Assembly (NCBI GenBank): GCA_964012805.1
Contig: CAXGUD010000005.1
Span: 78,325 to 142,324, forward strand
DNA length: 64,000 nucleotides
Direction of reading: 5' to 3'
Source: an uncultured Bacteriovoracaceae bacterium
GTDB lineage: Bacteria; Bdellovibrionota; Bacteriovoracia; Bacteriovoracales; Bacteriovoracaceae
Of the stretch, positions 20,475 to 37,900 are shown piece after piece. The translations under genes were made by a program, and so were the position numbers. The first letter of the stretch is position 1. Each line of letters opens with the position of its first letter. The notes under the pieces were generated by a model. That model ran no database searches and was not told where the DNA came from. It was given only the letters and a program-made list of their open reading frames with translations.

Positions 20475-20505
20475 GAGTAACCTCCAAAGTCGAGCCAGGA
20501 TTCCT

Positions 20506-21870
20506 ATGAAAACTTTATTTAATAATTTACCTAAGCATTTACTCTCAAGCTTTCTCTCTCTTTTTTTCTTCTTAAACATAGTTTCAGCCCAAACGAACAA
20601 TATACAAGAAAAAGAGTCCAAATTACAAGTTTGGAATGTAAAACAAATTCTTAAAATTGAGATAAACTCTTCAATCAACCCAGCGACCTTCAATTACCTT
20701 TCTATGGCCTATAAGAAGGTGAAGGAGGAAAACTACAACCTCCTTTTAATTAAAATGAATACTCCCGGGGGACTTGTTTCGACAACTCAGCAAATCCTAA
20801 CATTGATAGGAAGTGACGAGGTCCCAGTTGTAATCTGGGTTGCTCCAGGTGGGGCGAGTGCAACAAGTGCAGGAGCCATAATATCTTCAGGTGCTCATGC
20901 TCTCTATATGGCAGAAGGAACAAGTATTGGAGCTGCAACTCCTATAGAAATGAGTGGGGATATTAAAGCAAAGGATGCTAGGAAAAAGGCAATTAACTCA
21001 TTAGTCTCTCTAGTTGAATCTCTTTCGGAAGCACGGGGAAGAAATAAAAAAATGTTCGCCAATATGGTTAAAGAAGCCTCTTCCTTCAATGCAGCTGACG
21101 CTAAAGAAAAAAATATTATTGACGGTATCGCAAATGGCATCTCGGATATTTACGATGACCTTGAAGGTAAGGAAATAACTCTTAAAGGTAAGCGTTATAC
21201 CATTCAAGTAAATAGCCCAACGGTAAAATTCTTTCAGATGGACCTGGGTCAAAAACTTCTCGATACCCTTGCTAACCCTTCTATGGCCTATATCCTTTTC
21301 CTTATTGGAGCTGCTCTCATTTATCTTGAAATTCAGTCACCAGGAGGTCTCATTGCGGGTTCTATCGGGGCCTTCTGTTTACTTCTCGCAGGGATCGGTT
21401 TTCAGATACTCCCTCTCAATTTTGGAGCTTTAGGTCTTATCCTTCTCTCTTTCATGCTCTTTATTTTAGAAGCCTATGTTCTTAGCTATGGGCTTTTGAC
21501 ACTAGCAGGACTTTTGGCCCTTACAGCAGGAAGTTTATTCCTTTATAGAACCGATGAAGCTTACCTTCAGATGAGTTACTCACTCATCTTTTCAGCAGTG
21601 GCCTCTATAGGTATTTTCGTTGGTATCTTGGGATATTACTTAGCTCGCGACTGGAAAAATCGGAAGACCGGAAGTGCCGACGACTACAATAGTCCTCTTG
21701 GCAAAAAAGGTTTTATAGTCGATATTATTGAGTCTGAAGAAGAAAATGTCTATCTTTATCAAGTAAAAGTAGGCGGTGAGTTTTGGAAGGCTCAATCTTC
21801 CAAGCGTTTTAATAAAGAAGATCAATGTGAAATAAAAAAACAAGATAAACTGCTACTGACTATTGAATAA
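20506..21870 (+). CDS. nfeD: NfeD-family membrane-bound serine protease (long form)
   Basis: Signal peptide, NTPGG, A(T)SAG, IGAATP, TM block and C-terminal OB domain (GEFWKA). Adjacent to a stomatin gene. Confidence 0.9.
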   Translation: MKTLFNNLPKHLLSSFLSLFFFLNIVSAQTNNIQEKESKLQVWNVKQILKIEINSSINPATFNYLSMAYKKVKEENYNLLLIKMNTPGGLVSTTQQILTLIGSDEVPVVIWVAPGGASATSAGAIISSGAHALYMAEGTSIGAATPIEMSGDIKAKDARKKAINSLVSLVESLSEARGRNKKMFANMVKEASSFNAADAKEKNIIDGIANGISDIYDDLEGKEITLKGKRYTIQVNSPTVKFFQMDLGQKLLDTLANPSMAYILFLIGAALIYLEIQSPGGLIAGSIGAFCLLLAGIGFQILPLNFGALGLILLSFMLFILEAYVLSYGLLTLAGLLALTAGSLFLYRTDEAYLQMSYSLIFSAVASIGIFVGILGYYLARDWKNRKTGSADDYNSPLGKKGFIVDIIESEEENVYLYQVKVGGEFWKAQSSKRFNKEDQCEIKKQDKLLLTIE

Positions 21871-21908
21871 ATTTTTGGTGGTAGAAAATTTTCAAGGAGA
21901 AAAAGGCT

Positions 21909-22658
21909 ATGGGTTTAGGTTTTATGGTTGGTTTCATTATCCTTATTATTTTGCTCTTCAACACGCTCAAAATTCTTAAAGAATATGAAAGAGCTGTGGT
22001 TTTTAGACTTGGTCGCTTTACCGGTATCAGAGGGCCTGGGCTTATTATCCTCATACCTGGAATTGAAACCATGACTAGAGTTGACCTCAGAACGGTTACC
22101 ATGGATATTCCATCTCAAGATATCATCACAAGAGATAATGTTACTCTTAAGGTAAATGGTGTCGTATATTTCAGAGTTAATGATGCTGAAAAAGCAACCA
22201 TAGCAGTAGAGGACTACCTGGTCGCTACGGGACAAATTTCTCAGACAACACTTCGGTCTGTGATCGGCCAATTTGAACTAGATCAAATCCTCTCTCAGAG
22301 AGACCAGATTAACGTAAAGCTTCAAAATATATTGGATGAGCAGACAGAACCGTGGGGAGTTAAAGTTTCATCCGTTGAGGTCAAGGCAATTGACCTACCA
22401 ATGGAAATGCAAAGTGCAATGGCAAAACAAGCTCAGGCAGAAAGGGATAAAAGGGCCAAAGTCATTTCAGCAGAAGGGGAACTTGATGCGTCCATTAAAT
22501 TAGCTGAAGCTGCAGCAGTACTAGACAAGCAAAAAAATGCAATTATTTTAAGATATCTAGATACAATGAAAGAGATATCTAGTGGTGAAGGAAAAAGTAC
22601 GACATTCTTTCCATTACCGGTCAACTTCTTAGAAAATATTATGGGTGATAAAAAGTAA
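21909..22658 (+). CDS. SPFH/stomatin (slipin) family protein
   Basis: EYERAVVFRLGR, GPGL, QTTLRSVIG and MAKQAQAERDKRAKVISAEGE motifs. AAGGAG SD. Confidence 0.93.
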   Translation: MGLGFMVGFIILIILLFNTLKILKEYERAVVFRLGRFTGIRGPGLIILIPGIETMTRVDLRTVTMDIPSQDIITRDNVTLKVNGVVYFRVNDAEKATIAVEDYLVATGQISQTTLRSVIGQFELDQILSQRDQINVKLQNILDEQTEPWGVKVSSVEVKAIDLPMEMQSAMAKQAQAERDKRAKVISAEGELDASIKLAEAAAVLDKQKNAIILRYLDTMKEISSGEGKSTTFFPLPVNFLENIMGDKK

Positions 22659-22666
22659 TTAGTTAT

Positions 22667-22704
22667 AGGACTTACAGTGATAAAAAAAGGTTTCTGTAAG
22701 TCCT
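22667..22704. terminator. Hairpin between convergent genes
   Basis: AGGACTTACAG-16 nt-CTGTAAGTCCT followed by a T-rich tract. Confidence 0.55.
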
Positions 22705-22722
22705 TTTATTTCTCTTTCGTTT

Positions 22723-23376
22723 TTATTGATTACTTGAAGAAAATGTCTTTGCCCAAGGAATATCCACTGCAGATTTTTCTCCATTAGCTTTCTCAATCAT
22801 TTTCCTCGCAACTTCGATAGACTCAATTGCTGCGTACTGCTTTAAAGATCCTCTTAGAAAGAAACCCAAAGGTTTCATGAAAAACTCCCCCAACTTTTCT
22901 CCCAGCCGAGCTTCCTCTCTAGATCCTAAAAGCAATGAAGGCCTTACTATAGTCACATGAGCTGGGCCAAACTTTATAATATCTTCCTCAATTCTTCCTT
23001 TCACTTTATTATAAAAGATGGAAGATTTTGAATTAGCTCCCATTGCAGAAACTAGAATAAAATGCTTACCGCCATGTTTATTTAAAAGTTTTGCAGCACG
23101 AAGAACATACTCGTAATCTACTTTTTCAAAGTTCTTCTTGGATTTTGCCTTCTTAATTGTTGTCCCTAAGCAACAAAAAAGATGATCAACACAAAAGTAT
23201 TCGGCCCATTGATCCATATGGTTAAAGTCTATCTCTAACTGAAGTAACTTTTCATGTTCTAGTGATAACTTACCTCTAACAAGGCTTATCACCTCCTCAT
23301 ACCTATCATCTTTTAATAAAAGCTTAATGACATCTTTGCCAACTAAGCCAGTTCCACCTAAAACTAATGCTTTCAT
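22723..23376 (-). CDS. NAD(P)-binding oxidoreductase (YraR/TIP30-like atypical SDR)
   Basis: LGGTGLVG, CCLGTTIKKA, VSAMGA..S..FYNKVKG and RPSLLLG motifs. Confidence 0.88.
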   Translation of the reverse strand: MKALVLGGTGLVGKDVIKLLLKDDRYEEVISLVRGKLSLEHEKLLQLEIDFNHMDQWAEYFCVDHLFCCLGTTIKKAKSKKNFEKVDYEYVLRAAKLLNKHGGKHFILVSAMGANSKSSIFYNKVKGRIEEDIIKFGPAHVTIVRPSLLLGSREEARLGEKLGEFFMKPLGFFLRGSLKQYAAIESIEVARKMIEKANGEKSAVDIPWAKTFSSSNQ

Positions 23377-23389
23377 TCACTATAATCCT

Positions 23390-23428
23390 TTGTGCAGAAT
23401 GAATTTTATCATAATTCATTCTGCACAA
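23390..23428. repeat. Perfect 16-bp inverted repeat with 7-nt spacer in a divergent intergenic region
   Basis: TTGTGCAGAATGAATT-ttatcat-AATTCATTCTGCACAA. Confidence 0.9.
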
Positions 23429-23438
23429 TAAAAGTTTT

Positions 23439-23467
23439 TTGACAGGAAGATTTAGTCGCTTTATGTT
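23439..23467 (+). promoter_or_regulatory. sigma70-type promoter of the regulator-fabF-acp-ole gene run
   Basis: TTGACA-17 nt-TATGTT, 54 nt upstream of ATG 23522. Confidence 0.6.
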
Positions 23468-23521
23468 TAGACCTCGAATATTTTATTTTTGAAATATAAA
23501 ATTGGCTTCAGATTTTAAAAA

Positions 23522-24187
23522 ATGGAAAATCAAAATACTAACAATACAGATCAAAATAATAGTTCGGCTCCTAATGGGTTTGATCTTAAAGGGTTTGAAG
23601 ACTTTTTCAACTCTATCGGCTTCAAGAGAGTGGATGGATCCGTGTTCGGCTTACTCGTTCTTTCTCAGATAGCATTGACTAGCGAAGACATTGAAAAATC
23701 ACTAGGGCTGTCTCAAAGCGCAACGAGTATATCTCTCAAAAAACTCCATCACTTTGGGGCCATCGAAACGAGGGATAGTAGGGAAAAGAGAGTAAAACTA
23801 CACGAAGCAAAAGAAGACTGTCTCGAAATTGTCACAACTTTATTCAAAAAAAGAGAGCAGGAAAATATTAGACAATTTAAAGCCTTTGCAGAAAGCCTCT
23901 TAAGTAAAAACCCAGAGTTTGCCATAAGCCCTAAGGACCCCAGGTATAAGAAAATTAAATCGATTATTTTAACATGTGATATTGCCGAATCTGTTATTAA
24001 GTTTGTCATTAACTTATCAAACCTTCAGATACCAAAGGATTATCCTTCTATTGTTAAAAAACTTCCCCTGGCCTTAGATATTATATCGCAAAGTGCACAA
24101 CCTCTCGTAAGCTTTACGACTCAAATAAAAACAAACTGGGCCGATAGAGTCAAAAATGGCTTATCACGATTTTCAGGAGACCAATAA
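23522..24187 (+). CDS. GbsR/MarR-like winged-helix transcriptional regulator
   Basis: GFKRVDGSVFGLLVLS..LTSEDIEKSLGLSQSATSISLKKL...GAI wHTH pattern. Its TAA is directly followed by the ATG of the KS gene. Confidence 0.75.
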   Translation: MENQNTNNTDQNNSSAPNGFDLKGFEDFFNSIGFKRVDGSVFGLLVLSQIALTSEDIEKSLGLSQSATSISLKKLHHFGAIETRDSREKRVKLHEAKEDCLEIVTTLFKKREQENIRQFKAFAESLLSKNPEFAISPKDPRYKKIKSIILTCDIAESVIKFVINLSNLQIPKDYPSIVKKLPLALDIISQSAQPLVSFTTQIKTNWADRVKNGLSRFSGDQ

Positions 24188-25432
24188 ATGCCTTCACAAT
24201 TTTCACGCATCGTCATTACAGGTGTCGGATTAGCTGCACCAAACGGAAACAACCTTTCAGAGTTCCGCCAGGCCCTCCTTCAAAATAAATCTGGAATTAA
24301 GCATAAAGAAATCCGCCATATGGGTAAAGTAGCAGCGGGGGAATGTGATTTTGATGAAACAAAGCACCAATCAAGAAAAGCTCGCCGTCGAGGTACCAGG
24401 GCGGGAGCAACCTCCATTTACTGTGCAAATGAATCACTTTTAGATTCAAATATTGAACTTTCAATGGTCGATAAATCGAAAATAGGCATTTATCTAGGAA
24501 TTACTGAGCATGGAAATGTTGAAACGGAAAATGAAGTTCACCTCCTTTACCAAAATGACCTAAATACAAGCTTCTGGTCACACCACCATAATCCTAGAAC
24601 AGTCTCTAATAACCCAGCAGGAGAGGTCTCTCTTAATTTGAAAGTTACAGGACCAGCCTATACTATTGGTGCTGCGTGTGCGGCTGGCAATATGGGGCTT
24701 ATCCACGCTTGCCAAATGCTAAGGCTTCATGAAGTTGATATTGCGTTAGCTGGAGGCGTTTCTGAGAGTACAGAAACATTTGGAATTTTTGCAGCTTTTG
24801 GAGCGCAAGGGGCGCTTGGGGAACACTCAAACCCCGAACTAGCAACAAGACCTCTAGATATAGACAGAAGTGGTATCGTTGTTTCAGAGGGAGGCGCCAT
24901 TTTTACCCTTGAAAGACTAGAGGATGCATTAAAAAGAGGGGCTAAAATTTACGGAGAAATCATTGGCTATCATGTTAACTCTGATGCCTCTGACTTTGTT
25001 CTACCTAATAGTGAAAGACAAAAACAATGCATAAGCGCAGCTCTTAAAAGAGCTCATCTGGAAGCAGATGACATTGATATTGTAAACCTTCACGCAACTG
25101 GAACTGTTCAAGGCGACATCCAAGAGTGTCAAGCCGTCCGTGAAACATTTAATTTAAACCCTGGGTCAAATACACATATAAATTTTACTAAAGGTCTTAT
25201 TGGTCATGCCATGGGAGCTGCGGGAGCCCTTGAGCTAGCAGGAAATTTACCAAGTTTTGAAGATAATTTTGTCCATCCAACAGGCTATCTTAACCAAATC
25301 GATGAAAAGTGTGCCCTTAAGAATCTTGTTGGAAAAACAAAAGTTCAAAAAAAAGTAAATACAATTTTGAATAACTCTTTTGGAATGCTAGGTATAAACT
25401 CAAGCCTTATTGTCCAAAAATATAGAGGTTAA
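24188..25432 (+). CDS. fabF: Beta-ketoacyl-ACP synthase (FabF/FabB family)
   Basis: Cys-His-His triad: AACAAG, NLHATGT, KGLIGHAMGAAG. C-terminal NNSFG. Confidence 0.88.
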   Translation: MPSQFSRIVITGVGLAAPNGNNLSEFRQALLQNKSGIKHKEIRHMGKVAAGECDFDETKHQSRKARRRGTRAGATSIYCANESLLDSNIELSMVDKSKIGIYLGITEHGNVETENEVHLLYQNDLNTSFWSHHHNPRTVSNNPAGEVSLNLKVTGPAYTIGAACAAGNMGLIHACQMLRLHEVDIALAGGVSESTETFGIFAAFGAQGALGEHSNPELATRPLDIDRSGIVVSEGGAIFTLERLEDALKRGAKIYGEIIGYHVNSDASDFVLPNSERQKQCISAALKRAHLEADDIDIVNLHATGTVQGDIQECQAVRETFNLNPGSNTHINFTKGLIGHAMGAAGALELAGNLPSFEDNFVHPTGYLNQIDEKCALKNLVGKTKVQKKVNTILNNSFGMLGINSSLIVQKYRG

Positions 25433-25531
25433 AACACGGCCATAAATTTTTATTTTAAATATAGAATTTACAAAATATTAAATTTAAAATCATTACAGTT
25501 TTTGAATTGAAATGCTTTAGAAGGAGTCAAA

Positions 25532-25777
25532 ATGGAAAATGCACAAGTTAGAGAAGCAGTTATGAATATTATAGCAGACATCGCACTAGATGAAGATGTT
25601 ACTCAAATCAAGGACGACCTTGCTCTTAGAGACCAACTCGATTTAGATTCGATGGATTTTTTAGATATTGTTATGGAGCTAAAAAAACGCCACAAGATTG
25701 AAGTTCCTCAAGAAGACTACCCGAAACTCGCCACGATGGAATCATGTGTTAATTACCTAGGTCCAAAGTTTCATTAA
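25532..25777 (+). CDS. Acyl carrier protein
   Basis: Acidic 81 aa with LDLDSMD phosphopantetheine site. AAGGAG SD. Confidence 0.93.
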   Translation: MENAQVREAVMNIIADIALDEDVTQIKDDLALRDQLDLDSMDFLDIVMELKKRHKIEVPQEDYPKLATMESCVNYLGPKFH

Positions 25778-25822
25778 TTAGAGCTTCCCTTACTTCAGAA
25801 GGACACAATAAAGGCTAACTTC

Positions 25823-27226
25823 ATGCAAGAAAAGTATGATGTCATTGTAATAGGCGCAGGCCTCTCAGGTTTAGCAGCTGGAATAAGACTGGCAATGTTT
25901 GGAAAAAAAGTATGCATTCTAGAGAAGCATTCAATTCCAGGGGGCTTAAACTCTTTTTACCAAAGAAAAGGAGTTCAATTTGATGTGGGTCTCCATGCAC
26001 TCACAAACTTTGCTAAAAGAGGTGAAAAGGGTTTGCCTCTTACGAAGATCCTTAAACAGTTAAGAATTTCTTATGATGAGCTTGACCTGAAAGAACAGTT
26101 TTTTTCCCAAATTGCTTTTCCAGATCTCAGCCTGTCCTTTACTAACGAGCTCGAGTTTCTTGTTGAAGAAATAAATAAAAATTTTCCTGAGGAATCAGAC
26201 TCCTTTTTAAAACTAGTCGAAAAGGTAAAACAATTTAATGCTTTTAGTCTAGACCAAGATTTTGTTTCCACAAGAGAAATCCTTCCCCAATACATCAAAG
26301 ATCCTCTATTACAGGAAATGATTTTAGCTCCAACTCTTGCCTACGGAAGTGCCTGGGAAAACGATGTCGACTTTTCTCAATTTGTTATTCTATTTAGAAG
26401 TATCTTCTTAGAAGGCCTTTCAAAGCCTATGGGCGGTATAAGAAAAGTTCTTGGTCTTTTAGAAAAAAGATTTAATGAAAATGGAGGAATTCTAAAATAT
26501 AAGTCCCCAGTAAAAAATATTATACAGAATACCAAAGGTGTCGAAGGAGTTATTCTTAAAAATGGGACCATACTCAAATCTGATACGATCATTTCTTCGG
26601 CAGGTTTCCCAGAAACGATGGATATGGTTGAAGAAGAACTCCCTCCCAAAATAAGTCCAGAGGTTGGAAGCTTCAGTTTTACAGAAAGCATTGCTGTTTT
26701 AAATAAAAAGCCCAAAGAGCTAGGACAAAAAGCCGCTACCATTTTTTATTCATCTCTTCCCAAATATAAATATGAAAATCCAAAAACTCATTATGGAACG
26801 GAAACTGCAATTTTAAGCTTTCCAAATAACTTTGAAGAAGATCCAATGGAAGAAGGTATGGCAAGGGTTACTTTTTTGGCCAACTACAACCTTTGGAAAC
26901 AACTTGATCGTGCGTCTTACAAAGATAAAAAAGAAGAAGTTTTTGAATCATCACTCAGACTTTTTGAAGAATTTTGCCCTAAAATTAAGGACCACCTCAT
27001 ACTTAAAGATGTTTTTACACCAACAACGATAGAAAAATTTACAAATCATAAGAAAGGAACAATCTATGGGAGTCCTCAAAAACAAAAGAGAGGGACGACA
27101 CCTATAAAAGGGCTTATTCTTTGTGGTACTGACCAAGGCTTTCTTGGAATTATTGGCTCTCTTCTCAGTGGAATTTCAATGGCCAACCTTCACGGTTTCT
27201 CCCCAACCCAAGGAGCAACCTCTTGA
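25823..27226 (+). CDS. FAD-dependent oxidoreductase, phytoene desaturase (CrtI)-like family
   Basis: IGAGLSGL Rossmann motif, LEKH..PGG, FDVGLH, FTPTT..FT..GTIYG and CGTDQGFLGIIG motifs. Confidence 0.88.
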   Translation: MQEKYDVIVIGAGLSGLAAGIRLAMFGKKVCILEKHSIPGGLNSFYQRKGVQFDVGLHALTNFAKRGEKGLPLTKILKQLRISYDELDLKEQFFSQIAFPDLSLSFTNELEFLVEEINKNFPEESDSFLKLVEKVKQFNAFSLDQDFVSTREILPQYIKDPLLQEMILAPTLAYGSAWENDVDFSQFVILFRSIFLEGLSKPMGGIRKVLGLLEKRFNENGGILKYKSPVKNIIQNTKGVEGVILKNGTILKSDTIISSAGFPETMDMVEEELPPKISPEVGSFSFTESIAVLNKKPKELGQKAATIFYSSLPKYKYENPKTHYGTETAILSFPNNFEEDPMEEGMARVTFLANYNLWKQLDRASYKDKKEEVFESSLRLFEEFCPKIKDHLILKDVFTPTTIEKFTNHKKGTIYGSPQKQKRGTTPIKGLILCGTDQGFLGIIGSLLSGISMANLHGFSPTQGATS

Positions 27227-28254
27227 AGTTTTCCAAAGTCCGCCTAGCATCCATAGGACACTTTCTTCCTAATAAAGTAATGACTTCTGAAGAACTCGAA
27301 ATGAGATGTGATAAACTCTATCAACGTTTAAACCTTCCGCACGGAAGGTTAGAATTAATGACGGGTATAAAAGAAAGACGCTACTGGGATGTAGGCACAA
27401 AGCCTAGTTTTATTGCAACAGAAGCGGCAAAAGACGCTCTTTTTAAAACTCATATAGAAAGTCATGAAGTAGACTTTTTAATTCATGCCTCTGTATGTAG
27501 AGACTTTCTTGAGCCTGCAACCTCTTCAGTAGTCCACCAAAACTTGGGACTAAAAAGTCGATGTGGAATTTTTGATCTTTCAAATGCTTGTCTCGGTGTT
27601 CAAAGTGCCATGGTGACTGTAGCTTCCATGATTGAACAAGGACAAATAAGATCTGGACTTATTGTTAGTGGAGAAAACAGTGGTCCTCTTATTTTTGAAA
27701 CTATCCGCTTTTTAAATTCAAATCCAAACCTAAATAGAAAAAATGTAAAAGAATATATAGCGAATCTAACTATTGGATCTGCGGGAGTTGCAGTCCTTCT
27801 TAGCGATGAAGGCATTTGCCCTGAAGGACCTCGCATTCTTGGCGGTGTTACAATGACACACTCTAATGCTAACCACCTTTGTCAAGGCGAAGGTGATATT
27901 CATTCCCTTATGATGAAAACAGACTCAGAGGAACTCCTGAAAGCAGGAATTCAATTAGCCCAGGAAACTTGGGAAGAAACAAAAAAAGAACTTAATTGGA
28001 GCAACGATATGATTGACTGGGTAATTGGTCATCAGGTTGGCCAAGCCCATGAAGAAGGAATTTTAAAAGGGTTAGGCTTATTCGAAAAAAAGACGTTTAA
28101 AACTTACGAGAACTTTGGAAATACAGGCTCTGCTGCTCTACCTTTAACTCTATCACTTCTAAAAGACTCAAAAAAAGTAAAACCAAATGATAAAATGACC
28201 CTTTTAGGGATTGGAAGTGGGCTAAGTTGCCTTATGTTGGGGGTCCAATGGTAG
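27223..28254 (+). CDS. oleA: OleA acyl-CoA:acyl-CoA alkyltransferase (thiolase/FabH fold)
   Basis: TGIKERR, RDFLEPA (Glu), SNACLG (Cys), GHQVG (His), GNTGSA (Asn) and LGIGSGL motifs. Followed by oleBCD. Confidence 0.9.
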   Translation: MKFSKVRLASIGHFLPNKVMTSEELEMRCDKLYQRLNLPHGRLELMTGIKERRYWDVGTKPSFIATEAAKDALFKTHIESHEVDFLIHASVCRDFLEPATSSVVHQNLGLKSRCGIFDLSNACLGVQSAMVTVASMIEQGQIRSGLIVSGENSGPLIFETIRFLNSNPNLNRKNVKEYIANLTIGSAGVAVLLSDEGICPEGPRILGGVTMTHSNANHLCQGEGDIHSLMMKTDSEELLKAGIQLAQETWEETKKELNWSNDMIDWVIGHQVGQAHEEGILKGLGLFEKKTFKTYENFGNTGSAALPLTLSLLKDSKKVKPNDKMTLLGIGSGLSCLMLGVQW

Positions 28255-29177
28255 AAAAGTCACATTGTAATGACATTGTCATTCCGGAAAGTCTTCGAAA
28301 AGAGTATCCATTTAGATCACACTTTCACTCTATAAAAATTAAAGGTCAGGACCTTCTCCAAATGCACTTTGTTGATGAGGGGCCAAAAAAGACTGACCCT
28401 ATTTTAATGATCCATGGAAATCCTACTTGGTCTTTTACTTACAGGAACCTCATAAAAAGCCTAAAGGAATCAAACCGTACAATTGCAGTTGATCATATTG
28501 GCTGTGGGCTTTCGGATAAGCCTCAAAACTACTCCTATCAATTACAAAACCATATTGAAAATCTTGAAAGCTTGGTAAACACCCTTAAACTTACCAATAT
28601 AACTCTTATTGTCCATGACTGGGGTGGAGCTATAGGCTTCGGACTTGCAACTAAAAATCCTCATCTTATCAAACGGGTTGTTATCCTTAATACTGCAGCT
28701 TTTGAAAGTAACCAAATTCCTCGAAGGATAAATTTTTGCAGGTTGCCTTTCATAGGTGAGAAACTAGTACGTCATTTTAATGCTTTTGCATGGCCCGCTA
28801 CTTTTATGGGTGTTACTCATAAACTACCAAAAGTTGTAAAACAAGGGTACCTCCTTCCCTATAACAATTATAAAAATAGAATTGCAACATCACGCTTTGT
28901 TCAAGATATTCCATTAGAGAAAAACCATCCTACTTTTAAAACTATCAAAAATATTGAAAAAAACCTTTTTCGAATAACATGCCCAAAATTAATATTATGG
29001 GGAGGAAAAGACTTTTGTTTTAACAACCATTTTTACGATCGATGGAAAGAAATTTACCCTACAGCAAAGACTCATTATTTTAAAAAAGCTGGTCACTTTG
29101 TTATAGAAGATGAAAAAGAAGAGGTTCTCTGCCAAATAAAAGCGTTCCTAAATAGTAACAGGCCAAATAGTTTTTAA
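28248..29177 (+). CDS. oleB: OleB beta-lactone decarboxylase (haloalkane dehalogenase-like alpha/beta hydrolase)
   Basis: HGNPTWS, DHIGCGLSDKP, VHDWGG (Asp nucleophile) and AGHFVIED motifs. Start taken as ATG 28248, overlapping the oleA end. Confidence 0.88.
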   Translation: MVEKSHCNDIVIPESLRKEYPFRSHFHSIKIKGQDLLQMHFVDEGPKKTDPILMIHGNPTWSFTYRNLIKSLKESNRTIAVDHIGCGLSDKPQNYSYQLQNHIENLESLVNTLKLTNITLIVHDWGGAIGFGLATKNPHLIKRVVILNTAAFESNQIPRRINFCRLPFIGEKLVRHFNAFAWPATFMGVTHKLPKVVKQGYLLPYNNYKNRIATSRFVQDIPLEKNHPTFKTIKNIEKNLFRITCPKLILWGGKDFCFNNHFYDRWKEIYPTAKTHYFKKAGHFVIEDEKEEVLCQIKAFLNSNRPNSF

Positions 29178-29240
29178 CCAATCCTCTGGATGACACAAAA
29201 AAATTATTATCAATAATTTAATAAAAGGACCTATAGATCT

Positions 29241-30932
29241 ATGAATATTGCTTTTAAACTTAGAGAGCAAGCTGAACTAAGACCAAGCAAAAAAGCCGTT
29301 CTCTTCCCTAAAAAAAGAAACTCATCCAATAAAAAATACGAATATGAGTCCCTCACCTTTAAGGAACTTGAAGACCTGTCCAATTTATACGGCTTCATAC
29401 TCCAAAAAGAGGGCATTACCAAAAACACTAAAGTTCTTCTTTTCTTAAGACCCTCTTTGGACTTTACAGCACTTACTTTTGCTCTTTTTAAGATTGGTGC
29501 TACTCCGATATTAATAGACCCCGGTATGGGAAAAAAGAACCTCATTCACTCCATATCTAAAGTAAAACCTCATGCATTAATCGCGGTTCAAGAAGTTCAC
29601 TTTATTAAGCAATTTTTTCCTGACTCTTTTAAAAGTTGTCAAATATTTATTAGTTCAGGAAACTTACAACTTCCCCAAACAAAAACCCTCAAAAAGCTAA
29701 AAGAAAGATGGGTTGATGACTTTCTTAAAGAACCCTTTTTTAAAATTGAAGACAGACACCCAGAAGACAGGGCCGCTATTTTATTTACTTCTGGAGGAAC
29801 TGGTATTCCTAAAGGAGTTGTATATACATACAGAATTTTTTCATCACAACTCAAAATGCTCCAAGGCATGTTTAACCTCAATCATAAAGAAGTCGATATA
29901 CCTGGATTTCCATTATTTTCTCTTTTTACTATTGGGATTGGAATGACAAGCTGTATTCCTGACATGAATCCATCAAAGCCTTCCCAGTGTGACCCTGAAA
30001 AACTAGTTCAAAATATTCAAGACAACCAAGCCACTTTTGTTGCTGGTTCACCTGCCATATGGGAGCGAGTTGCTGATTACTGCCTGGTCCATAAAAAAAC
30101 TCTTCCTTCCATAAAGTTTTTAGTGATGTTTGGAGCCCCTGTTTCCATCGACCTTCATGAAAAATTTGAAAAAACGCTACTTAACGGAACAACTTACACG
30201 CCCTACGGAGCAACAGAGTCGCTTCCTCTATGTCAATTCTCAGGAAAGGAAATTCTAAAAGAGACTGCTTCCCTTTCAAGAAAAGGAAATGGAACTTGCG
30301 TGGGGTTGCCGGTTAAAGGTGTCGACTTAAAAATAATACCTATTACAGAAAAAGAAATACCTTCCCTTGATCAAACAACTATATTGCCCCCTTTCAAAAT
30401 TGGAGAAGTCATCGTATCTGGTGATATTGTAACTGCTGAATACTATCAAATGGAAGAGCAAACAAAAAAAGCCAAAATTATGGATGAAAAGGGAAAGCTC
30501 TGGCACAGAATGGGAGATGTTGGCTACTTAGATCAAGATGGAAAACTATGGTTTTGCGGAAGAAAAACTCACAGAGTCCATGTCGATACTACTCAAAATG
30601 ATGGACAACAGAAAAAAGAACTTTATTCTATTCCTTGCGAGGCCGTCTTTAACGAGCACCCAGAAGTTAAAAGAACCGCCCTAATTCAGACAAGTGAAAA
30701 GGGTCTAAATACAGCGTCAATTGTTATTGAAAGAAGAGATAAAAAAAGCTTAAGAGGTAAAGAGAAGCATCGCTTTGAAAAAGAAATTCTCCTTATAGCA
30801 AAAAATTTTGAACATACTTCTTCAATTAAGAAAGTTTATTACCATAATAACTTTCCTGTAGACGTCAGACACAATATCAAAATAGACCGCATTAAACTTC
30901 GAGAAGTTTCCTCAAAAAAGGCTTTTATATGA
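29241..30932 (+). CDS. oleC: OleC beta-lactone synthetase (ANL adenylating family)
   Basis: IDPGMG, FTSGGTGIPKG, TPYGATE, HRMGDVG and PVDVRHNIKIDR motifs. Confidence 0.9.
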   Translation: MNIAFKLREQAELRPSKKAVLFPKKRNSSNKKYEYESLTFKELEDLSNLYGFILQKEGITKNTKVLLFLRPSLDFTALTFALFKIGATPILIDPGMGKKNLIHSISKVKPHALIAVQEVHFIKQFFPDSFKSCQIFISSGNLQLPQTKTLKKLKERWVDDFLKEPFFKIEDRHPEDRAAILFTSGGTGIPKGVVYTYRIFSSQLKMLQGMFNLNHKEVDIPGFPLFSLFTIGIGMTSCIPDMNPSKPSQCDPEKLVQNIQDNQATFVAGSPAIWERVADYCLVHKKTLPSIKFLVMFGAPVSIDLHEKFEKTLLNGTTYTPYGATESLPLCQFSGKEILKETASLSRKGNGTCVGLPVKGVDLKIIPITEKEIPSLDQTTILPPFKIGEVIVSGDIVTAEYYQMEEQTKKAKIMDEKGKLWHRMGDVGYLDQDGKLWFCGRKTHRVHVDTTQNDGQQKKELYSIPCEAVFNEHPEVKRTALIQTSEKGLNTASIVIERRDKKSLRGKEKHRFEKEILLIAKNFEHTSSIKKVYYHNNFPVDVRHNIKIDRIKLREVSSKKAFI

Positions 30933-31915
30933 ATATTCTCGTTACTGGTGGGGGGGGCTTTCTTGGAAAGTCTATCATCAATTTACTTATTGATAAAAAA
31001 TATAAAGTTACGAATTTTTCTAGATCTCGTTATCAAGAACTTGAAAAAAAAGGAGTCATATGCCTCCAAGGGGATATAAAAAACTCCCAGGATGTATTAA
31101 AGGCTTTTGAGGGACAAGATGCTGTTATTCACGTGGCTTCTAAAGTTGGCATGTGGGGTAAATGGAGTGACTTTTACGATACAAACGTAACTGGGACAGA
31201 AAACGTCATTAATGCATGTTTAAAGCATCAAATCAAGAAGCTTGTTTACACAAGTTCGCCTAGCGTAGTATTTGGGAAAGATAATCTACAAAATGCAGAT
31301 GAATCGACTCCCTATCCAGACAAATACTTTGGGCTTTATGCTCACTCCAAAGCCATCGCAGAAAAAAAAGTTTTGGAGTCAAACAACTCTCCAAAACTTT
31401 TAACAACCTCCCTAAGACCTCACCTTATTTTTGGTGAAAAAGACCCTAACTTAATCCCAAGGCTTGTAAAAGCTGCAAGGGAGGGAAAGTTGAAGCAAGT
31501 AGGCTCTGGACAAAACCTAGTTGACGTTATCTACGTCGAAAATGCTGCTTATGCTCATATATTGGCCCTTGAGAAGCTTTCTACTTCTTCACCTATTTGC
31601 GGCAAAGCTTACTTTCTTGGCCAAGAGGCCCCTGTAAACCTATGGCAATTTATTAACAAAATCCTTAATATTCATGGCCTCCCGCCAATAAAAAAAACAA
31701 TTTCTTTTAAAAAAGCCTACTTCCTTGGTGCTTTTATTGAAAAAACACTAGGCTTACTGAGGAAATACTCTGTTGACCCACCGATGACAAGATTTGTAGC
31801 ACTTCAACTAGGTAAGTCTCATTACTTTTCTCACAAGAATGCCTTTATGGAGTTGGGTTACAAGCCCCTACTTTCAACAGACAAGGCCCTTGAACGCCTG
31901 AGTACAACTCAATAA
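30929..31915 (+). CDS. oleD: OleD 2-alkyl-3-oxoalkanoate reductase (3-beta-HSD-like SDR)
   Basis: TGGGGFLG, YTSSPSVV, YAHSK (YxxxK) and LRPHLIFG motifs. ATGA overlap with oleC. Confidence 0.9.
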   Translation: MNILVTGGGGFLGKSIINLLIDKKYKVTNFSRSRYQELEKKGVICLQGDIKNSQDVLKAFEGQDAVIHVASKVGMWGKWSDFYDTNVTGTENVINACLKHQIKKLVYTSSPSVVFGKDNLQNADESTPYPDKYFGLYAHSKAIAEKKVLESNNSPKLLTTSLRPHLIFGEKDPNLIPRLVKAAREGKLKQVGSGQNLVDVIYVENAAYAHILALEKLSTSSPICGKAYFLGQEAPVNLWQFINKILNIHGLPPIKKTISFKKAYFLGAFIEKTLGLLRKYSVDPPMTRFVALQLGKSHYFSHKNAFMELGYKPLLSTDKALERLSTTQ

Positions 31916-31947
31916 TTCAAAGGTTAAAGTTTTTTTTAAGGACTAAT

Positions 31948-32079
31948 TTATTGTGGATTATCATTAGATATAAAAAGCTTTTTATAGAGCCTTTCAACTT
32001 CTTCCCAGTCATGTTCTATAGTGGCCCTTGCGATCGCTTCCAAAATTTCGTCTTTTGAAATTTCTTCATGCCCTACCAT
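31948..32079 (-). CDS. Small hypothetical protein (43 aa), not in the ORF track
   Basis: GGAGG-AATAG-ATG, then MVGHEEISKDEILEAIARATIEHDWEEVERLYKKLFISNDNPQ*. Confidence 0.65.
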   Translation of the reverse strand: MVGHEEISKDEILEAIARATIEHDWEEVERLYKKLFISNDNPQ

Positions 32080-32202
32080 CTATTCCTCCAAATACCTACT
32101 TAATTGTCACTTAGAGAAGGTATTATTTGAAAAGTCAGATCTTAAATTTTGCAATTCTTATATGATATTAATCAACTTCTATTTATATAAATGTAAAAGC
32201 TC

Positions 32203-32589
32203 TTAGACCATTTCTTTCATTTCAAGAACATCTTTCACATCAGATACAAGCTCTTTCACACTGAAAGGCTTGGAATACATTTTTTCTACTCCCAACCGAA
32301 CTGTTTCTCCATCTTGAAGTCTATAAAAACCTGACATGAAAAAAAATAGTGGGGCATTATCTCCCATTTTCTCTATATGATCCAAAATTTCAAAGCCGCT
32401 TCCCCCTTCCATCTTGTAATCAGAAATAACGGCATTATATTTTGCAGACTCTATTTTCTTTATGGCGTCAGCACTTGATTTCGCTACTTCAGCTTCCATC
32501 CCACCTTCACGAAACTCGTCACTCACTATGTCTAAAATTTCCGGCTCATCATCTACAATCAAGACTTTAAATTTTTTATCCGTTACCAT
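32203..32589 (-). CDS. Single-domain response regulator receiver
   Basis: LIVDDE, ISDYKM (phospho-Asp), MSG and KPF motifs. Confidence 0.9.
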   Translation of the reverse strand: MVTDKKFKVLIVDDEPEILDIVSDEFREGGMEAEVAKSSADAIKKIESAKYNAVISDYKMEGGSGFEILDHIEKMGDNAPLFFFMSGFYRLQDGETVRLGVEKMYSKPFSVKELVSDVKDVLEMKEMV

Positions 32590-32788
32590 CAGACTTCTCC
32601 CCCTCAGAACTCAAGAAAGAACAAAATTTCATCTTCTATTATAAAGAATAAACAATTAATTGCACTTTTTTTCTCTATGTCAAAAGTTTTCTTGATTAGA
32701 ATGCTGCGTGTAATTTTTGAAATGTGTCCCCTATTGTGGTACCTCTTAAACTCTAAATTTAAATAGTACTATTTTTTAGGGAAGTTGA

Positions 32789-33583
32789 ATGATCGAGAAT
32801 ATACTAGGAACATTTAGAACTGCGCTTTGCATGATTCTGACATTTTTTATAGCACTTTTTGCATCTATTTCTGGTTTATTCATTGGCGGCCAAAGAGCTT
32901 GGGAGTTCTGGAGAGAAGCTTGGGGAAAAACAATTCTCTTCTTTTTAGGCGTTAAAATGAAAATTAATGGCATGGAAAACCTTAAGGGTCCTGCCGTTTT
33001 CATAATGAATCATGAAAGTGTAATAGACATTTTTACCATTGCTGCCATTACTCCCAAAAAAACCACATTTGTATCAAAAAAAGAGGTAGCTCGTTTTCCT
33101 TTTGTTGGAATAATAATGCGAATGGGAGGCTGCATATTTATAGACCGCTCCAATACGAGGTCTGCTATTGAAAGTATCAAAGAGGGTGTTGAAGAAAGAA
33201 GAGAAAATTATTCAATTATTGTCTTTCCAGAAGGAACACGCTCTAACGCAGAGCAAGGACTTAAACCTTTTAAGAAAGGCTGCATGCATATTGCAATGGC
33301 GGCTGGTATTCCAATTGTCCCTATAGGCCAAAGTGGAGCAAGAACTCTTGCCAGCGGAAAAAGCCTCGTTATAAAAAAAGGTAGTCCTATTTATTTTGAA
33401 ATAGGAGAACCTATTTCTACAGATATGTGGAACTTGGAAAATACGGAAAAACAAATGGAGCTTTTACAAGAGGAAGTAAAAAACCTTATTGCCAAAGCTA
33501 AAACGAAAAGAGAAAAAGCATTAAAAGACCGAGGCAATGAAGATCATTTTAAAAACGATAACTTTTCAACTAAAGCACTTTAA
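32789..33583 (+). CDS. plsC: 1-acyl-sn-glycerol-3-phosphate acyltransferase
   Basis: NHESVID, FIDR, FPEGTRS and IVPI motifs. Confidence 0.88.
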   Translation: MIENILGTFRTALCMILTFFIALFASISGLFIGGQRAWEFWREAWGKTILFFLGVKMKINGMENLKGPAVFIMNHESVIDIFTIAAITPKKTTFVSKKEVARFPFVGIIMRMGGCIFIDRSNTRSAIESIKEGVEERRENYSIIVFPEGTRSNAEQGLKPFKKGCMHIAMAAGIPIVPIGQSGARTLASGKSLVIKKGSPIYFEIGEPISTDMWNLENTEKQMELLQEEVKNLIAKAKTKREKALKDRGNEDHFKNDNFSTKAL

Positions 33584-33621
33584 AAATCGAGATAAAACTT
33601 CAAATAAAAGAGGAGTCTAAT

Positions 33622-34293
33622 ATGGATAACCTTATTTTAATAAGACACGGTCAGAGTCGTTGGAACCTTGAGAATCGTTTCACCGGATGGGTCGACGTTG
33701 ATTTATCTGAAAATGGAATTTTGGAAGCAAAAGAAGCTGCGAAAGTTTTAAAAGAGAATGCTATAGAAATTGACTACGTCTATACTTCGGTACTTAAGAG
33801 AAGTATTCAAACCGCAGAACTAATACTTGATACATTAGAGAAAAATGAACTTTCATTAACAAAAAGTTGGCAACTGAATGAAAGGCATTATGGAGCGCTA
33901 CAAGGGAAAAATAAAAAAGAAACAGCTGAGCTTCATGGAGCCGAGCAAGTAAAAATATGGAGGAGATCCTTTTCTACAAAACCTCCACAATTGAATGAAG
34001 AAGACATTCAAATACCTGAAAGCTGGGGAGAAAACATTCCAAAGGTACTTGGTGAAAGTTTGGAAGATACCTGTAAAAGAGTTGTCCCTTTTTGGAAAGA
34101 CAGTATTTTAAAAGACATTAGAAGGGGTAAGAAAATACTGATAAGCGCTCATGGAAATAGCCTTAGGGCCCTCTTAAAGCACCTTTTTTCAATTTCTGAA
34201 GAGAAGATCTTAGAATTAGAAATTCCCACAGGAAAACCAATTCTTTGTAAAATTAATGAAGAAGGTCTAGGTGTTGAATATTCATATATTTAG
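33622..34293 (+). CDS. gpmA: 2,3-BPG-dependent phosphoglycerate mutase
   Basis: LIRHGQS, NRFTGW, LNERHYG and AHGNSLR motifs. Confidence 0.96.
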   Translation: MDNLILIRHGQSRWNLENRFTGWVDVDLSENGILEAKEAAKVLKENAIEIDYVYTSVLKRSIQTAELILDTLEKNELSLTKSWQLNERHYGALQGKNKKETAELHGAEQVKIWRRSFSTKPPQLNEEDIQIPESWGENIPKVLGESLEDTCKRVVPFWKDSILKDIRRGKKILISAHGNSLRALLKHLFSISEEKILELEIPTGKPILCKINEEGLGVEYSYI

Positions 34294-34320
34294 TAATCGT
34301 GATGAAACTGGGATCATATT

Positions 34321-34944
34321 ATGTCATTAACTATGCCAATACTTGAGGAACTTCAACTTTATTCTATCAATAAATGCCCTTTTGAAAGCTTCGAAAAATG
34401 GTTTGAAGAAGCATTGACCAAAGAAGAAAACCCTTCAGCATTCTCCTTAGCAACCGCAACAAATAATGCAGTTCCCTCAGTTAGGTTCCTCCTCTTTAAA
34501 GGGTTACAAAATTATAAGTTTAACTTTTTTACCAACAAGACAAGCCCCAAGTCACAAGACTTGTCTAAAAACCCCTATGCCGCAATGGCTTTTTACTGGC
34601 ACAAGACTGGACGCCAAGTTCGCATCTCTGGAAAAGTTGAGGAGATGAATAGAGAAATGGTTGAAGATTACTGTTCCAAAAGACCAAGATTAAGCCAAGT
34701 CGCAACTTATGTTTCTAAACAAGGTCAAAAACTTAAAAGTAAAAACGAGCTTATAGAAAGCTTCAACCAGTGCTTAGAATCATTTGAAGGTAAAAACATT
34801 CCTACACCAAACCATTGGACAGGGTACTCAGTAATACCACATGAGATAGAGTTTTTTATTTATGGAGAACATCGGCTAAATGATAGATTTCTATTTGAAA
34901 AAAAAGAATCGGAATCGTGGGAAATATCCAGACTAGCACCATAA
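34321..34944 (+). CDS. pdxH: Pyridoxamine 5'-phosphate oxidase
   Basis: LAT, PSVRFLLFKG, FFTN..SPK, RQVRISG, SKQ and EFF...RLNDR...SRLAP motifs. Confidence 0.9.
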   Translation: MSLTMPILEELQLYSINKCPFESFEKWFEEALTKEENPSAFSLATATNNAVPSVRFLLFKGLQNYKFNFFTNKTSPKSQDLSKNPYAAMAFYWHKTGRQVRISGKVEEMNREMVEDYCSKRPRLSQVATYVSKQGQKLKSKNELIESFNQCLESFEGKNIPTPNHWTGYSVIPHEIEFFIYGEHRLNDRFLFEKKESESWEISRLAP

Positions 34945-34956
34945 TATAAATTAAAT

Positions 34957-37900
34957 CTAGAGCGGCTTCACCTTAGCATTGGAACTAAAGGTTAAGCAAA
35001 AAGATGTTCCCTCATTCATGGTCGTCTCAATATTTAAATCTGCTCCTAATAAATTTAATGATTTTTGCACAACATCCATCCCGATACCTCTTCCTGAAAT
35101 CTCAGTTACATTTTCTTTTGTACTAACGCTTGGAAGAAAAATGAGATTAATCTTTTCTTTCGTACTCATTACTTCTATTTTATCTTTTTCAACAAGACCT
35201 AACTTTACACCTTTTTCAGTAAGCTTATTGATGTCTATACCGACTCCATCATCTTTAATCGTAATCGAAATATTATCACCATCTAATTGTTGGCATAAGA
35301 TCTCTATAAGACCTACTTCATTTTTTCCTTTGATTAATCTATCATTCGGTTTTTCAATCCCATGATCTACAGCATTTCTAATAAGGTGGACGATAGCTTC
35401 CTGTAAAATGTTTAAAGAATCTCTATCTAAAGAACATTCTTCACCGACTAAAGAAAACTTAATTTTTTTTCCTAAGTTTTCAGAAATTTCTTTAATAACT
35501 TTCTGGTATCGAAATAAAGAAAATTTGACTGGAAGATAAAGTAATTTATCAAACATTTCATTTAATATATTTTCTTCATTTTTAATAGAAGGGATACTTA
35601 TAATCGTTTTTTTTACGTAATCATAATTTTCTACTAATATTTCATGTACTTTCGGTTTAAGATCTGAGGCATTATAATCTTCTATATCTATATAGTTTTT
35701 AAATAGCTTCAGAAGATCAATATTTTTAGAATAAAAATGCCAAGAGAAATCTTTTTTCAACATGAATTCTTTCAGATTATTTACAAAAGAATAATTTCCT
35801 AATGAAAAAAGCCTTTCAATTTTATCAAATGCTTCAAGAAGGTCGAAACGAAATAATTCATAATAAATTTCATTAATAAAGTTTTTAAATTCTTGGTCAC
35901 CAAAAATTAAATTTATCACAGACTTAATATCTATTTTCAAAGTTTTAGATATAATACCAAACAAGTCATTTCTATCTAATCCATTTTTTTCCAAAATATT
36001 AAGTGTTTGCCATATAAAAGTCTTTTCAAATCTCGAAACATTAGGATCTATAGGTTCGTTATTTAAAAATGATTCAATAAAAAAGACCCTCTTCCCAGGT
36101 GAAATATTTTTATAAAGGTCAAGCTGAAATAGAATAATAATAAATTTCCAGATCTCATTAAGAGTAAAAATAATCTTTTGATGCTTTAATTCGTTATCTA
36201 AAGTTTTCGATTCTATCAAATCATAGAGATATCTAAATAAAGCAGGAAAAAAATCTAATTTAATACTTAAGGTATTTGAGTGAATATGGTAAACATTTTG
36301 AATAATATCATTGCTATTAATATAACTTTTATTAATTAACTTTTCTGAAATAATTGTGATATCCTTAATTAAGATAGACCAGAAATCAGTATTTAATTCT
36401 AAATTGTGAAATTGCGATGACTTTACAAAAATATTTTTACATATTTTTCTTATTTCACCTATGGGGTCAATAAAATATTCTTGATATTGTTCCTTAGAAT
36501 AATCTTCATTATCTTTAAAGTAAGAAATACCACTTTCTAAATGGTGAATTTTCTGAGATAGCTCCTTTTCATCAATTCCTCTTGCAAGACCTTTCATTGA
36601 ATGGCTTATATTTTCGATTTCTTCTATAATTTCAGTTCGATCGCTATTATTTTTAATAGAATCAATAGTTTCGATCTGAAAATCATCATAGTTTCCTATA
36701 TTTGAGTTTTCCCGTTTTGATAACTTAGAAACCAAATACTCAAGACTTTTTAGTAATTCGTGCAACTGGGATTTAAATTTGAGATCTTCTTTAAACTCTA
36801 AAGAAAAGACTTCTTTGGCGGAATTAATATATTGGCTAACTTGACCTTGAAGAGCATACAGTTCCTGAACTAAAGAATTTGTTCCTTCATAATCATGATT
36901 CTTTTTATAACCTAGGTTTTCATTATAATTATCAGTAATAAATTTAGAAAGAATCGTTTCAATTTGATGAGCACTAGACGAAATATAACTTAAACCATAA
37001 ACTCTAGCATTACCCTTAATTGTGTGGAGTTGCCTAAACAAAATAGGCAAATCTGAAACTTTTTCTGAGCTTTCGACCTGACTTCTAATTTTTTTGGCAA
37101 TAAATATCGAGTCCATGGTCATTTTATTTGTGGTACTAAAGAATTCACTTAAATCTTCTTTTTTATTTAAAGCAAGTTCCTGAAGGATTTGGATATTTTT
37201 CATCGAATTTTTTCTCTGCTCTTCAACCTCTTTTTCAAGTTTTTCAATTTCAGTTATATCTTCAACGACAAACATTATACTTTGAATTAAATTAGATTTA
37301 TCAAACAAAGGATTATAAGCTATTTTTAGTATTTTTTGATGCTCTAGTGTTTCTGAATTATAAATGACTCGGTTTGGAAAGTGGTCCTTAACCATTTCCC
37401 ACTGTAGATCATCAGATCCAAATAATATGCTTAGAGAAAATTTGATCGTAGAATAAACTTCTGAGTCTTTGTCAATACCAATAAACACATTATTAAATAA
37501 ATCATCTCCAACTATATCGTTACCAAAAATGATTTCTGAATATTTAGAAACAGGTTTTTGAACTATACCTTCATTCGATATTGTAAACACGGCTTGTCTC
37601 ATATTATCTAAAAGATTTGAAATATCATCTAGGGCCATCGAAAGTTCTTTCGTTCTTTCTTTTACTTCATCCTCTAAATTAATATTTGCATCTTCAAGTA
37701 GCTTATTGGCCTTTAGATTTTCTTCTAGAAGACTATTAATAATATCAGCAAGACCTAAGGAAAGAAGAATAACTTCAAAAACACCTCCTATTTGAAAAGC
37801 ATTTAAAAAAATAAACCAAGGAGGCAAAAATCCATTCATTTGTCCTATTTGAAGGATCCCTCCTCCAGTTATAAAAATAAATGCCAAAAGATAATACTTA

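Follow-up and report, generated by a model that had tools for sequence, protein, structure and literature searches.

A gene run joining oleABCD to a putative private fatty-acid synthase in an uncultured Bacteriovoracaceae bacterium

The gene run, its Ole enzymes, and its regulator

The stretch of DNA analyzed here, herein called the window, comprises 64,000 nucleotides (nt) of contig CAXGUD010000005.1 (positions 78,325 to 142,324, forward strand) from the assembly GCA_964012805.1 of an uncultured Bacteriovoracaceae bacterium. At positions 23522 to 31915, it holds eight plus-strand genes, in which oleA, oleB, oleC, and oleD are preceded by the genes of a regulator, a ketosynthase (KS), an acyl carrier protein (ACP), and a CrtI-like flavoprotein. 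The eight open reading frames (ORFs) are real and intact at the coordinates given by an initial annotation, which was made from the sequence alone. Together with four genes on another contig, the non-Ole enzymes would make up a set of seven proteins (the kit) that is predicted to build the acyl chains for OleA. The features of the run are the following.

23439..23467, + strand: sigma70-like promoter, TTGACA-17-TATGTT (10/12 matches; weak alone)
23478..23497, no strand: conserved palindrome directly after the -10 box, probable operator of the regulator
23522..24187, + strand: winged-helix regulator, 221 amino acids, distantly GbsR/MJ0223-like
24188..25432, + strand: KS of a separate family with C164/H302/H340 intact and GMLG in place of GFGG as gate loop
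25532..25777, + strand: dedicated ACP, S40
25823..27226, + strand: CrtI/CRTISO-fold flavoprotein, family 1 of the pair (flavoprotein 1)
27223..28254, + strand: OleA, TTG start (NF006720, 404.6 bits versus a cut-off of 285)
28248..29177, + strand: OleB, haloalkane-dehalogenase-like β-lactone decarboxylase (ATG start inferred; longer TTG ORF from 28227)
29241..30932, + strand: OleC, β-lactone synthetase (NF006754, 591.9 bits versus a cut-off of 478)
30929..31915, + strand: OleD, 2-alkyl-3-oxoalkanoate reductase (two OleD models are the top NCBIfam matches, 363.5 and 332 bits; cut-off of 580 not reached)

The tight junctions noted initially are found at four of the seven gene boundaries: the regulator abuts the KS (0 nt, TAA-ATG), the CrtI-like gene overlaps oleA by 4 nt (TTGA) and oleC overlaps oleD by 4 nt (ATGA), and oleA overlaps oleB by 7 nt when counted from the ATG at 28248, or by 28 nt when counted from the longer TTG ORF. 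The other three are gaps of 99, 45, and 63 nt. The GC content of the cluster (35–39%) is similar to that of the upstream sequence, and an Rfam scan of positions 20000 to 36000 gave no match at the gathering thresholds. A 1-acylglycerol-3-phosphate acyltransferase is encoded just past the cluster, at 32789–33583, and lies outside the conserved block in the loci examined.

The four ole genes stand in the same order as the OleABCD systems of Xanthomonas campestris, Shewanella oneidensis, and Micrococcus luteus, and their catalytic motifs are intact, as initially described, with the catalytic residues also kept in relatives. The active-site roles of residues of the Ole enzymes, KS, and ACP, and also of those of FabI and FabZ, are the ones generally assigned in these families. 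OleA is an OleA-family thiolase with E97, C123, H270, and N300 in place, which align to the solved relative 3ROW, presumably the OleA of X. campestris. The adjacent genes encode OleB with D131/D262/H290 (numbering of the TTG ORF), OleC with its P-loop and K547, and OleD with its YxxxK motif. OleA and OleC pass curated cut-offs; the lineage-specific OleC models that matched best, at 500 and 442 bits, remained below their own. OleB and OleD fit the expected families with scores under the curated cut-offs. The system differs from known OleABCD in being joined by a private KS, ACP, flavoprotein, and regulator, and its acyl chains come neither from Pfa nor, apparently, from the housekeeping fatty-acid synthase (FAS). 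A β-lactone had been considered as a possible end product. β-Lactone natural-product clusters carry oleACD without oleB (PMC7064751), whereas the intact oleB at 28248–29177 points to an olefin; hence, a β-lactone end product is unlikely.

The sigma70-like promoter proposed upstream of the run exists as a site, yet it is not significant alone, since 17 such sites were found versus 22.5 in shuffles; neither the promoter scan nor the terminator scan exceeded its shuffled controls. In 18 of 25 relatives, a comparable -35 hexamer stands ahead of the operator-like palindrome (a count without shuffle control). Upstream of the regulator gene, the palindrome occurs with at most three mismatches from the consensus in 22 of these 25 relatives, versus 0.19 in shuffles; this count is partly circular, as the consensus was fitted to the same 25 upstream regions. 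Independent support comes from a matrix trained on the relatives only, with the window excluded, for which 23478–23497 is the top-scoring site in the whole 4.47-Mb genome. Lying directly after the -10 box, the palindrome takes the position expected for autorepression, and the predicted regulator likely represses its own operon through it. The regulator, initially assigned to the GbsR/MarR type, is a winged-helix protein that is only distantly GbsR/MJ0223-like; its matches to the CudC model (27 bits, cut-off 218) and to the MJ223 structure 1KU9 (E = 2.4e-4) are weak, and it is lineage-restricted. A 16-bp perfect inverted repeat whose arms enclose a 7-nt loop lies at 23390–23428, in the interval from the start of a divergent short-chain dehydrogenase/reductase gene to the cluster promoter. 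It was not accepted as the operator, because nothing matching it occurs upstream of the relatives and the genome has 19 such repeats in all.

An accessory synthase in two halves

The initial annotation assigned a custom acyl precursor to the KS, ACP, and flavin oxidoreductase. A polyunsaturated chain is plausible, as the module takes the place of Pfa (see below), but these three genes are insufficient by themselves as a donor pathway. They are part of a larger system, the remainder of which lies outside the window: on contig C3 of the same genome, flavoprotein 2, FabG, FabZ, and FabI follow each other in one row (G000:C3:120565-124001; L089:6566-10005) and complete the kit. Nitrospina, a planctomycete, and Smithella carry a second CrtI-like gene, FabG, FabZ, and FabI after the first flavoprotein, and the C3 genes are 46–63% identical to the genes after the first flavoprotein in Nitrospina, Smithella, and locus L070. 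Of the 28 genomes of the family that have both halves, 24 carry the two on a single contig within a span of about 32 kb. All 11 enzyme genes are found within 20 kb in nine fetched loci, six of which form one same-strand run, and they occur in several orders.

A complete housekeeping FAS is encoded elsewhere, judging from sequence and context, with fabD-fabG-acpP-fabF on contig C8, fabZ on C16, and fabI on C7. Hence, the kit likely is a second, private synthase. It has the makeup of an accessory type II FAS, consisting of discrete KS, ACP, ketoreductase (KR), dehydratase (DH), and enoyl reductase (ER) proteins with intact catalytic motifs, and lacks its own FabD and phosphopantetheinyl transferase; two genes of the latter family lie on other contigs. 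The KS is no housekeeping FabF (KAS II): it scores 271.8 bits on TIGR03150, below the cut-off of 493.75, and the gate loop reads GMLG or GMFG instead of GFGG in 72 of 72 relatives, placing a methionine at the gate position amid near-invariant polar loops. FabG passes one subfamily cut-off (236.8 versus 222 bits), FabZ scores 112.8 bits against a cut-off of 113, and FabI 167 bits against 370. The FabZ-like protein carries the His/Glu pair of FabZ and not the Asp of FabA. In the FabI-like protein, the catalytic Tyr and Lys are kept and the preceding Tyr, at the position matching Y146, is replaced by Ile, both in the query and in the motif variants covering 14 of 20 relatives. Two observations concern further synthase genes: at G000:C1:93.7-96.7 kb (L090:7722-10725), another CrtI/RetSat-like gene stands beside another KS and ACP, with an acyltransferase and an RND-type transporter nearby, in a separate accessory lipid cluster, and genome G136 holds three KS-family copies that are 69%, 56%, and 53% identical to the query.

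The two flavoproteins are homologs with only 25% identity and belong to the CrtI-type fold that binds flavin adenine dinucleotide (FAD), with the FAD motif intact in both. Their structures are confidently predicted (predicted local distance difference test score of 91 each) and resemble the carotenoid desaturase 4REP (flavoprotein 1: Z 31.6, root-mean-square deviation (rmsd) 3.3, 436 residues aligned; flavoprotein 2: Z 33.0, rmsd 2.9, 434 aligned) and the P. acnes fatty-acid isomerase 2B9W (Z 23.1–23.2 for both). The best family model of both is that of the carotenoid isomerase TIGR02730, with 120.6 and 106.6 bits versus a cut-off of 587, and TIGR02734 scores 65.5 and 75.8 bits versus 238. Compared with CRTISO, CrtI, and RetSat proteins and with 2B9W, they share the fold but only about 17–21% identity and fall under all family cut-offs; they represent two new subfamilies, which here accompany fatty-acid genes. 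In a quick tree of 30 rows, each family makes up one side of a branch with an SH-aLRT (approximate likelihood-ratio) support of 99, apart from the other CrtI-like proteins of the genome. A search of a protein atlas matched only the same uncharacterized family, and some sources label relatives as all-trans-retinol 13,14-reductase. The complex prediction for the pair scored 0.00 and is used neither for nor against pairing. Flavoprotein 2 occurs in 31 of the 32 KS genomes of the phylum of the window and in none of its 119 other genomes. Named relatives of flavoprotein 1 come from Desulfobulbus, Desulfogranum, and the cable bacterium Ca. Electrothrix, and the loci L024 and L119 from the phylum of genome G151 show a Bacteriovoracaceae-like gene order, the flavoprotein 2 of L024 grouping with Bacteriovoracaceae copies in the quick tree, which may reflect either transfer or mis-binning.

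Linkage to OleA and complementarity with the Pfa synthase

A scan of species genomes gave at least 580 confirmed stretches among at least 599 pattern matches, and the following locus counts refer to the best 80. Therein, the KS gene is accompanied by an adjacent ACP gene in 76 loci, by a CrtI-like gene in 71, by oleA in 38, and by the regulator gene in 32. The complete eight-gene order of the run recurs in 22 of the 80, many of the others being cut by contig ends or coming from other phyla, so that the linkage is no matter of chance. The locus labels include Bdellovibrionota, Verrucomicrobiota, Nitrospinota, Planctomycetota, Nitrospirota, and Smithella. The best-named relatives of the cluster are Bacteriovoracaceae and Halobacteriovoraceae, which makes the initial guess of a predatory lineage reasonable. 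The cluster is not rare, as KS, OleA, and flavoprotein 2 occur together in 28 of the 29 other genomes of the family and the cluster is found in at least six phyla, in strict anaerobes and aerobes alike.

Co-occurrence was counted in 654 genomes of four phyla, each sample being centered on a KS-positive genome, so that the four centers are positive by construction. At a threshold of E ≤ 1e-100 or 1e-90, with matches 53–73% identical, the KS family is present in 32 of 151 genomes of the phylum of the window and in 9 of 171, 31 of 166, and 38 of 166 genomes of the other three, 110 in all. OleA is found in 32/32, 8/9, 31/31, and 36/38 of these KS genomes, in total 107 of 110; the three without a detected OleA are G169, where the KS lies at a contig end, G567, and G634. 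Spot checks of this co-occurrence held in 9 of 10 cases, with 9 unlinked. The reading of KS, ACP, and flavoprotein as a dedicated donor module for OleABCD is borne out by these counts, and the kit very probably feeds OleA.

The slot beside oleA is also taken by the Pfa synthase of polyunsaturated fatty acids, which feeds OleA in Shewanella and stands in a pfa-ole tandem in Geobacter bemidjiensis. The kit shares with it the KS, ACP, KR, DH, and ER activities but consists of discrete type II proteins with one ACP and one KS, no chain-length factor, and no FabA-type dehydratase; its reductase is FabI-type rather than PfaD-type, and it contains the two CrtI-fold flavoproteins. In the genome of the window (100% complete), no protein passes the cut-off of TIGR02813 (PfaA; best 155 bits) and none matches TIGR02814 (PfaD), so that a Pfa synthase with multidomain PfaA, PfaBC with FabA-type dehydratase domains, and PfaD is absent from it; none of the 151 genomes of its phylum exceeds the PfaA cut-off.

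In two other phyla, kit and PfaA divide the OleA genomes between them. Before inspection, the 17 OleA genomes in the phylum of G151 comprised eight with the kit only, nine with a PfaA-profile match only, and none with both or neither; the 57 in the phylum of G152 comprised 29, 25, two with both, and one with neither. The matches in G444, G495, and G321, the three weakest that affect these tables, were rejected as PfaA because they are ER-fused type I polyketide synthases (PKSs) with no FabA-type domains in those loci, in contrast to the true PfaA-PfaBC beside oleA in G215. After inspection, the counts for kit only, PfaA only, and neither are 8/8/1 and 31/25/1. Both phyla together thus hold 74 OleA genomes, of which 39 carry the kit, 33 PfaA, two neither, and none both; of the 33, 28 are over the cut-off and five score 830–932 bits, the domain-by-domain check having covered G215. 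Fisher p-values computed for these tables are overstated, as related genomes do not count independently. As an out-of-sample check, G565, the sole genome of the fourth sample with OleA but no KS and the one to which the PfaA search there was confined, carries a PfaA that exceeds the cut-off, at a distance of about 7 kb from oleA. Among the loci inspected, L100, L101, and L102 hold ER-fused type I PKSs (NMO-KS-AT-ACP-KR) of a different class that score on the PfaA profile, and L104, L105, and L106 are from small-genome members of the phylum of the window with bare oleABCD, neither kit nor PfaA being detected.

Proposed route, rival explanations, and meaning

Taken together, the seven non-Ole genes probably encode a private type II synthase that would build a polyunsaturated acyl-ACP, which OleA–D would condense to a C31-type olefin. 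That the chain is polyunsaturated, taken by itself, is slightly better founded and likely. Precedent comes from Shewanella, whose OleA takes 16:4 n-3 from the Pfa ACPs to give C31:9 (PMC6463001; PMC4882568). In the proposed mechanism, KS, ACP, FabG, FabZ, FabI, and the two flavoproteins would elongate a private acyl-ACP to 16:4 n-3 or a similar chain, with FabD and phosphopantetheinyl transferase borrowed from elsewhere in the genome and the altered FabI reducing selected cycles; OleA–D would then join the polyunsaturated chains. Making a methylene-interrupted chain by elongation requires a 2,3-shift and a 2,2 trans-to-cis change, and in Pfa the FabA-type domains set cis bonds via 2,2- and 2,3-isomerization (PMC9702510). 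Since the kit has a FabZ-type and no FabA-type dehydratase, yet always two divergent CRTISO-like proteins, each flavoprotein may perform one of these isomerizations. CRTISO and anaerobic CRTI use reduced FAD for double-bond isomerization without net redox change (PMC3382138). The two flavoproteins may accordingly be non-redox isomerases, at somewhat less than even odds. This step rests on pathway logic, and desaturation is nearly as likely; taken on its own, a function as desaturases is possible though doubtful. The full proposal is tentative and less likely than not: beside O2-dependent desaturases and Pfa, it would constitute a third route to methylene-interrupted polyunsaturated chains, in which CRTISO-like flavoproteins of a seven-protein type II synthase set cis bonds by isomerization on ACP, present in at least six phyla and core to Bacteriovoracaceae predators.

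The most serious rival, although unlikely as a whole, keeps the kit and its polyunsaturated product but lets the flavoproteins act as desaturases that add double bonds to an ACP-bound unsaturated chain, via quinone or oxygen. It goes back to a proposal for Desulfotalea psychrophila, which makes C31:8 and C31:9 without a PKS route, and for which a FAS II extension with DP1860, DP2405, and DP2406 was suggested (Rattray 2009, PMC2649909). DP2405 and DP2406 are an adjacent PF01593 phytoene-dehydrogenase-like pair and hence comparable, by their description only, to the kit flavoproteins; the isotope data of that study were read as derivation from monounsaturated fatty acids. The 2009 proposal invoked desaturation as well as ladderane and radical-SAM clusters, which are absent from the kit, and the accessible part of the paper draws no link to oleABCD. 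The solved structure closest to both kit flavoproteins, a desaturase, and their intact FAD motif fit this explanation too. Against it stands the established finding that CrtI-type enzymes lengthen a conjugated system from double bonds already present, whereas those of C31:9 are methylene-interrupted; moreover, the presence of a private KS, FabG, FabZ, and FabI suggests that the double bonds are introduced while the chain is being elongated, and the kit occurs irrespective of an anaerobic or aerobic lifestyle.

Anammox ladderane candidate clusters (kuste3603-3608 and kuste3335-3352) offer another comparison, having an extra ACP, FabF, FabZ, and CrtI-like gene in common with the kit. They contain a KS/chain-length-factor heterodimer and radical-SAM enzymes, neither of which occurs in the window cluster or in the C3 half; one B12 radical-SAM gene was found, inside locus L040 only. 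The anammox CrtI-like proteins show no phytoene desaturase activity (Javidpour 2016, PMC4790861), and the motif that follows their FAD site (supplement S2, compared by eye) matches neither kit flavoprotein family. Neither OleA nor olefins are mentioned in the accessible part of a 2026 preprint on the anammox KS heterodimer (10.64898/2026.05.19.726425).

That the kit makes another special chain, either a conjugated polyene that a RetSat-like saturase activity would reduce in part or a chain of fixed length that is poor in double bonds, and that Ole turns it into an olefin other than C31:9, is improbable. The CrtI superfamily does include saturases, a retinol reductase name is in use for relatives, the KS gate loop and the FabI position are altered family-wide, and the kit is tied to a product through genes alone. 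The near-perfect exclusion of PfaA among OleA genomes is, however, explained most simply if the chains from the two donors are of one kind, and the kit has a private FabI, in contrast to polyene pigment clusters. Least probable is mere co-location of kit and oleABCD, with OleA using housekeeping chains as in Xanthomonas or with a β-lactone as end product: the OleA of H. marinus expressed in Escherichia coli is active on a simple p-nitrophenyl ester, as measured in a surrogate assay (PMC7064751), and some OleA genomes lack both donors as three KS genomes lack a detected OleA, but KS and OleA stay together even where their genes are distant, linkage is kept while gene order is reshuffled across phyla, and oleB is intact.

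Several points weigh against the kit as a synthase of polyunsaturated chains for OleA with isomerases as its distinctive enzymes. The nearest solved folds of the flavoproteins are desaturases, and their carotenoid-isomerase scores of 121 and 107 bits are far under 587. The likeness to DP2405 and DP2406 is one of description, and D. psychrophila is not among the 120 flavoprotein 1 matches listed. Gemmataceae C31:9 (PMC7534041) was set aside as support because Gemmata carries a pfa-like cluster (PMC3098273). Complementarity shows a shared role and not an identical product, related genomes are not independent, and the large PfaA searches scored two candidates per genome. Seven genomes of the phylum of the window have OleA with neither kit nor PfaA matches, three of which were examined and hold oleABCD alone; hence, Ole works without either. 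Shared control of the two halves was looked for with the same matrix, and no operator-like palindrome was found upstream of the C3 half. Finally, the genome encodes 10 genes of the membrane fatty-acid desaturase family, so that an oxygen-free route is not needed.

With respect to earlier work, the Ole half is textbook knowledge, ole genes being listed in five phyla (PMC7158056), and the idea of the route was partly anticipated in print in 2009. The two-locus kit as core to Bacteriovoracaceae, its counted complementarity with Pfa, and the conserved operator-like palindrome are new here. A literature search, whose coverage excluded most subscription journals, found no paper characterizing the kit.

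The source of C31:9 in bacteria without pfa genes has been open since 2009, and a defined seven-gene candidate can now be named, which fills the slot of Pfa across phyla and is also placed in the cultured aerobic relatives Halobacteriovorax marinus and Bacteriovorax. If the proposal is true, it would reveal a small discrete-enzyme route to omega-3-type chains with new flavin chemistry on acyl-ACP, and the source assignment of C31:9 in sediments and cultures would change. For the whole predatory family, it would predict an unreported lipid.

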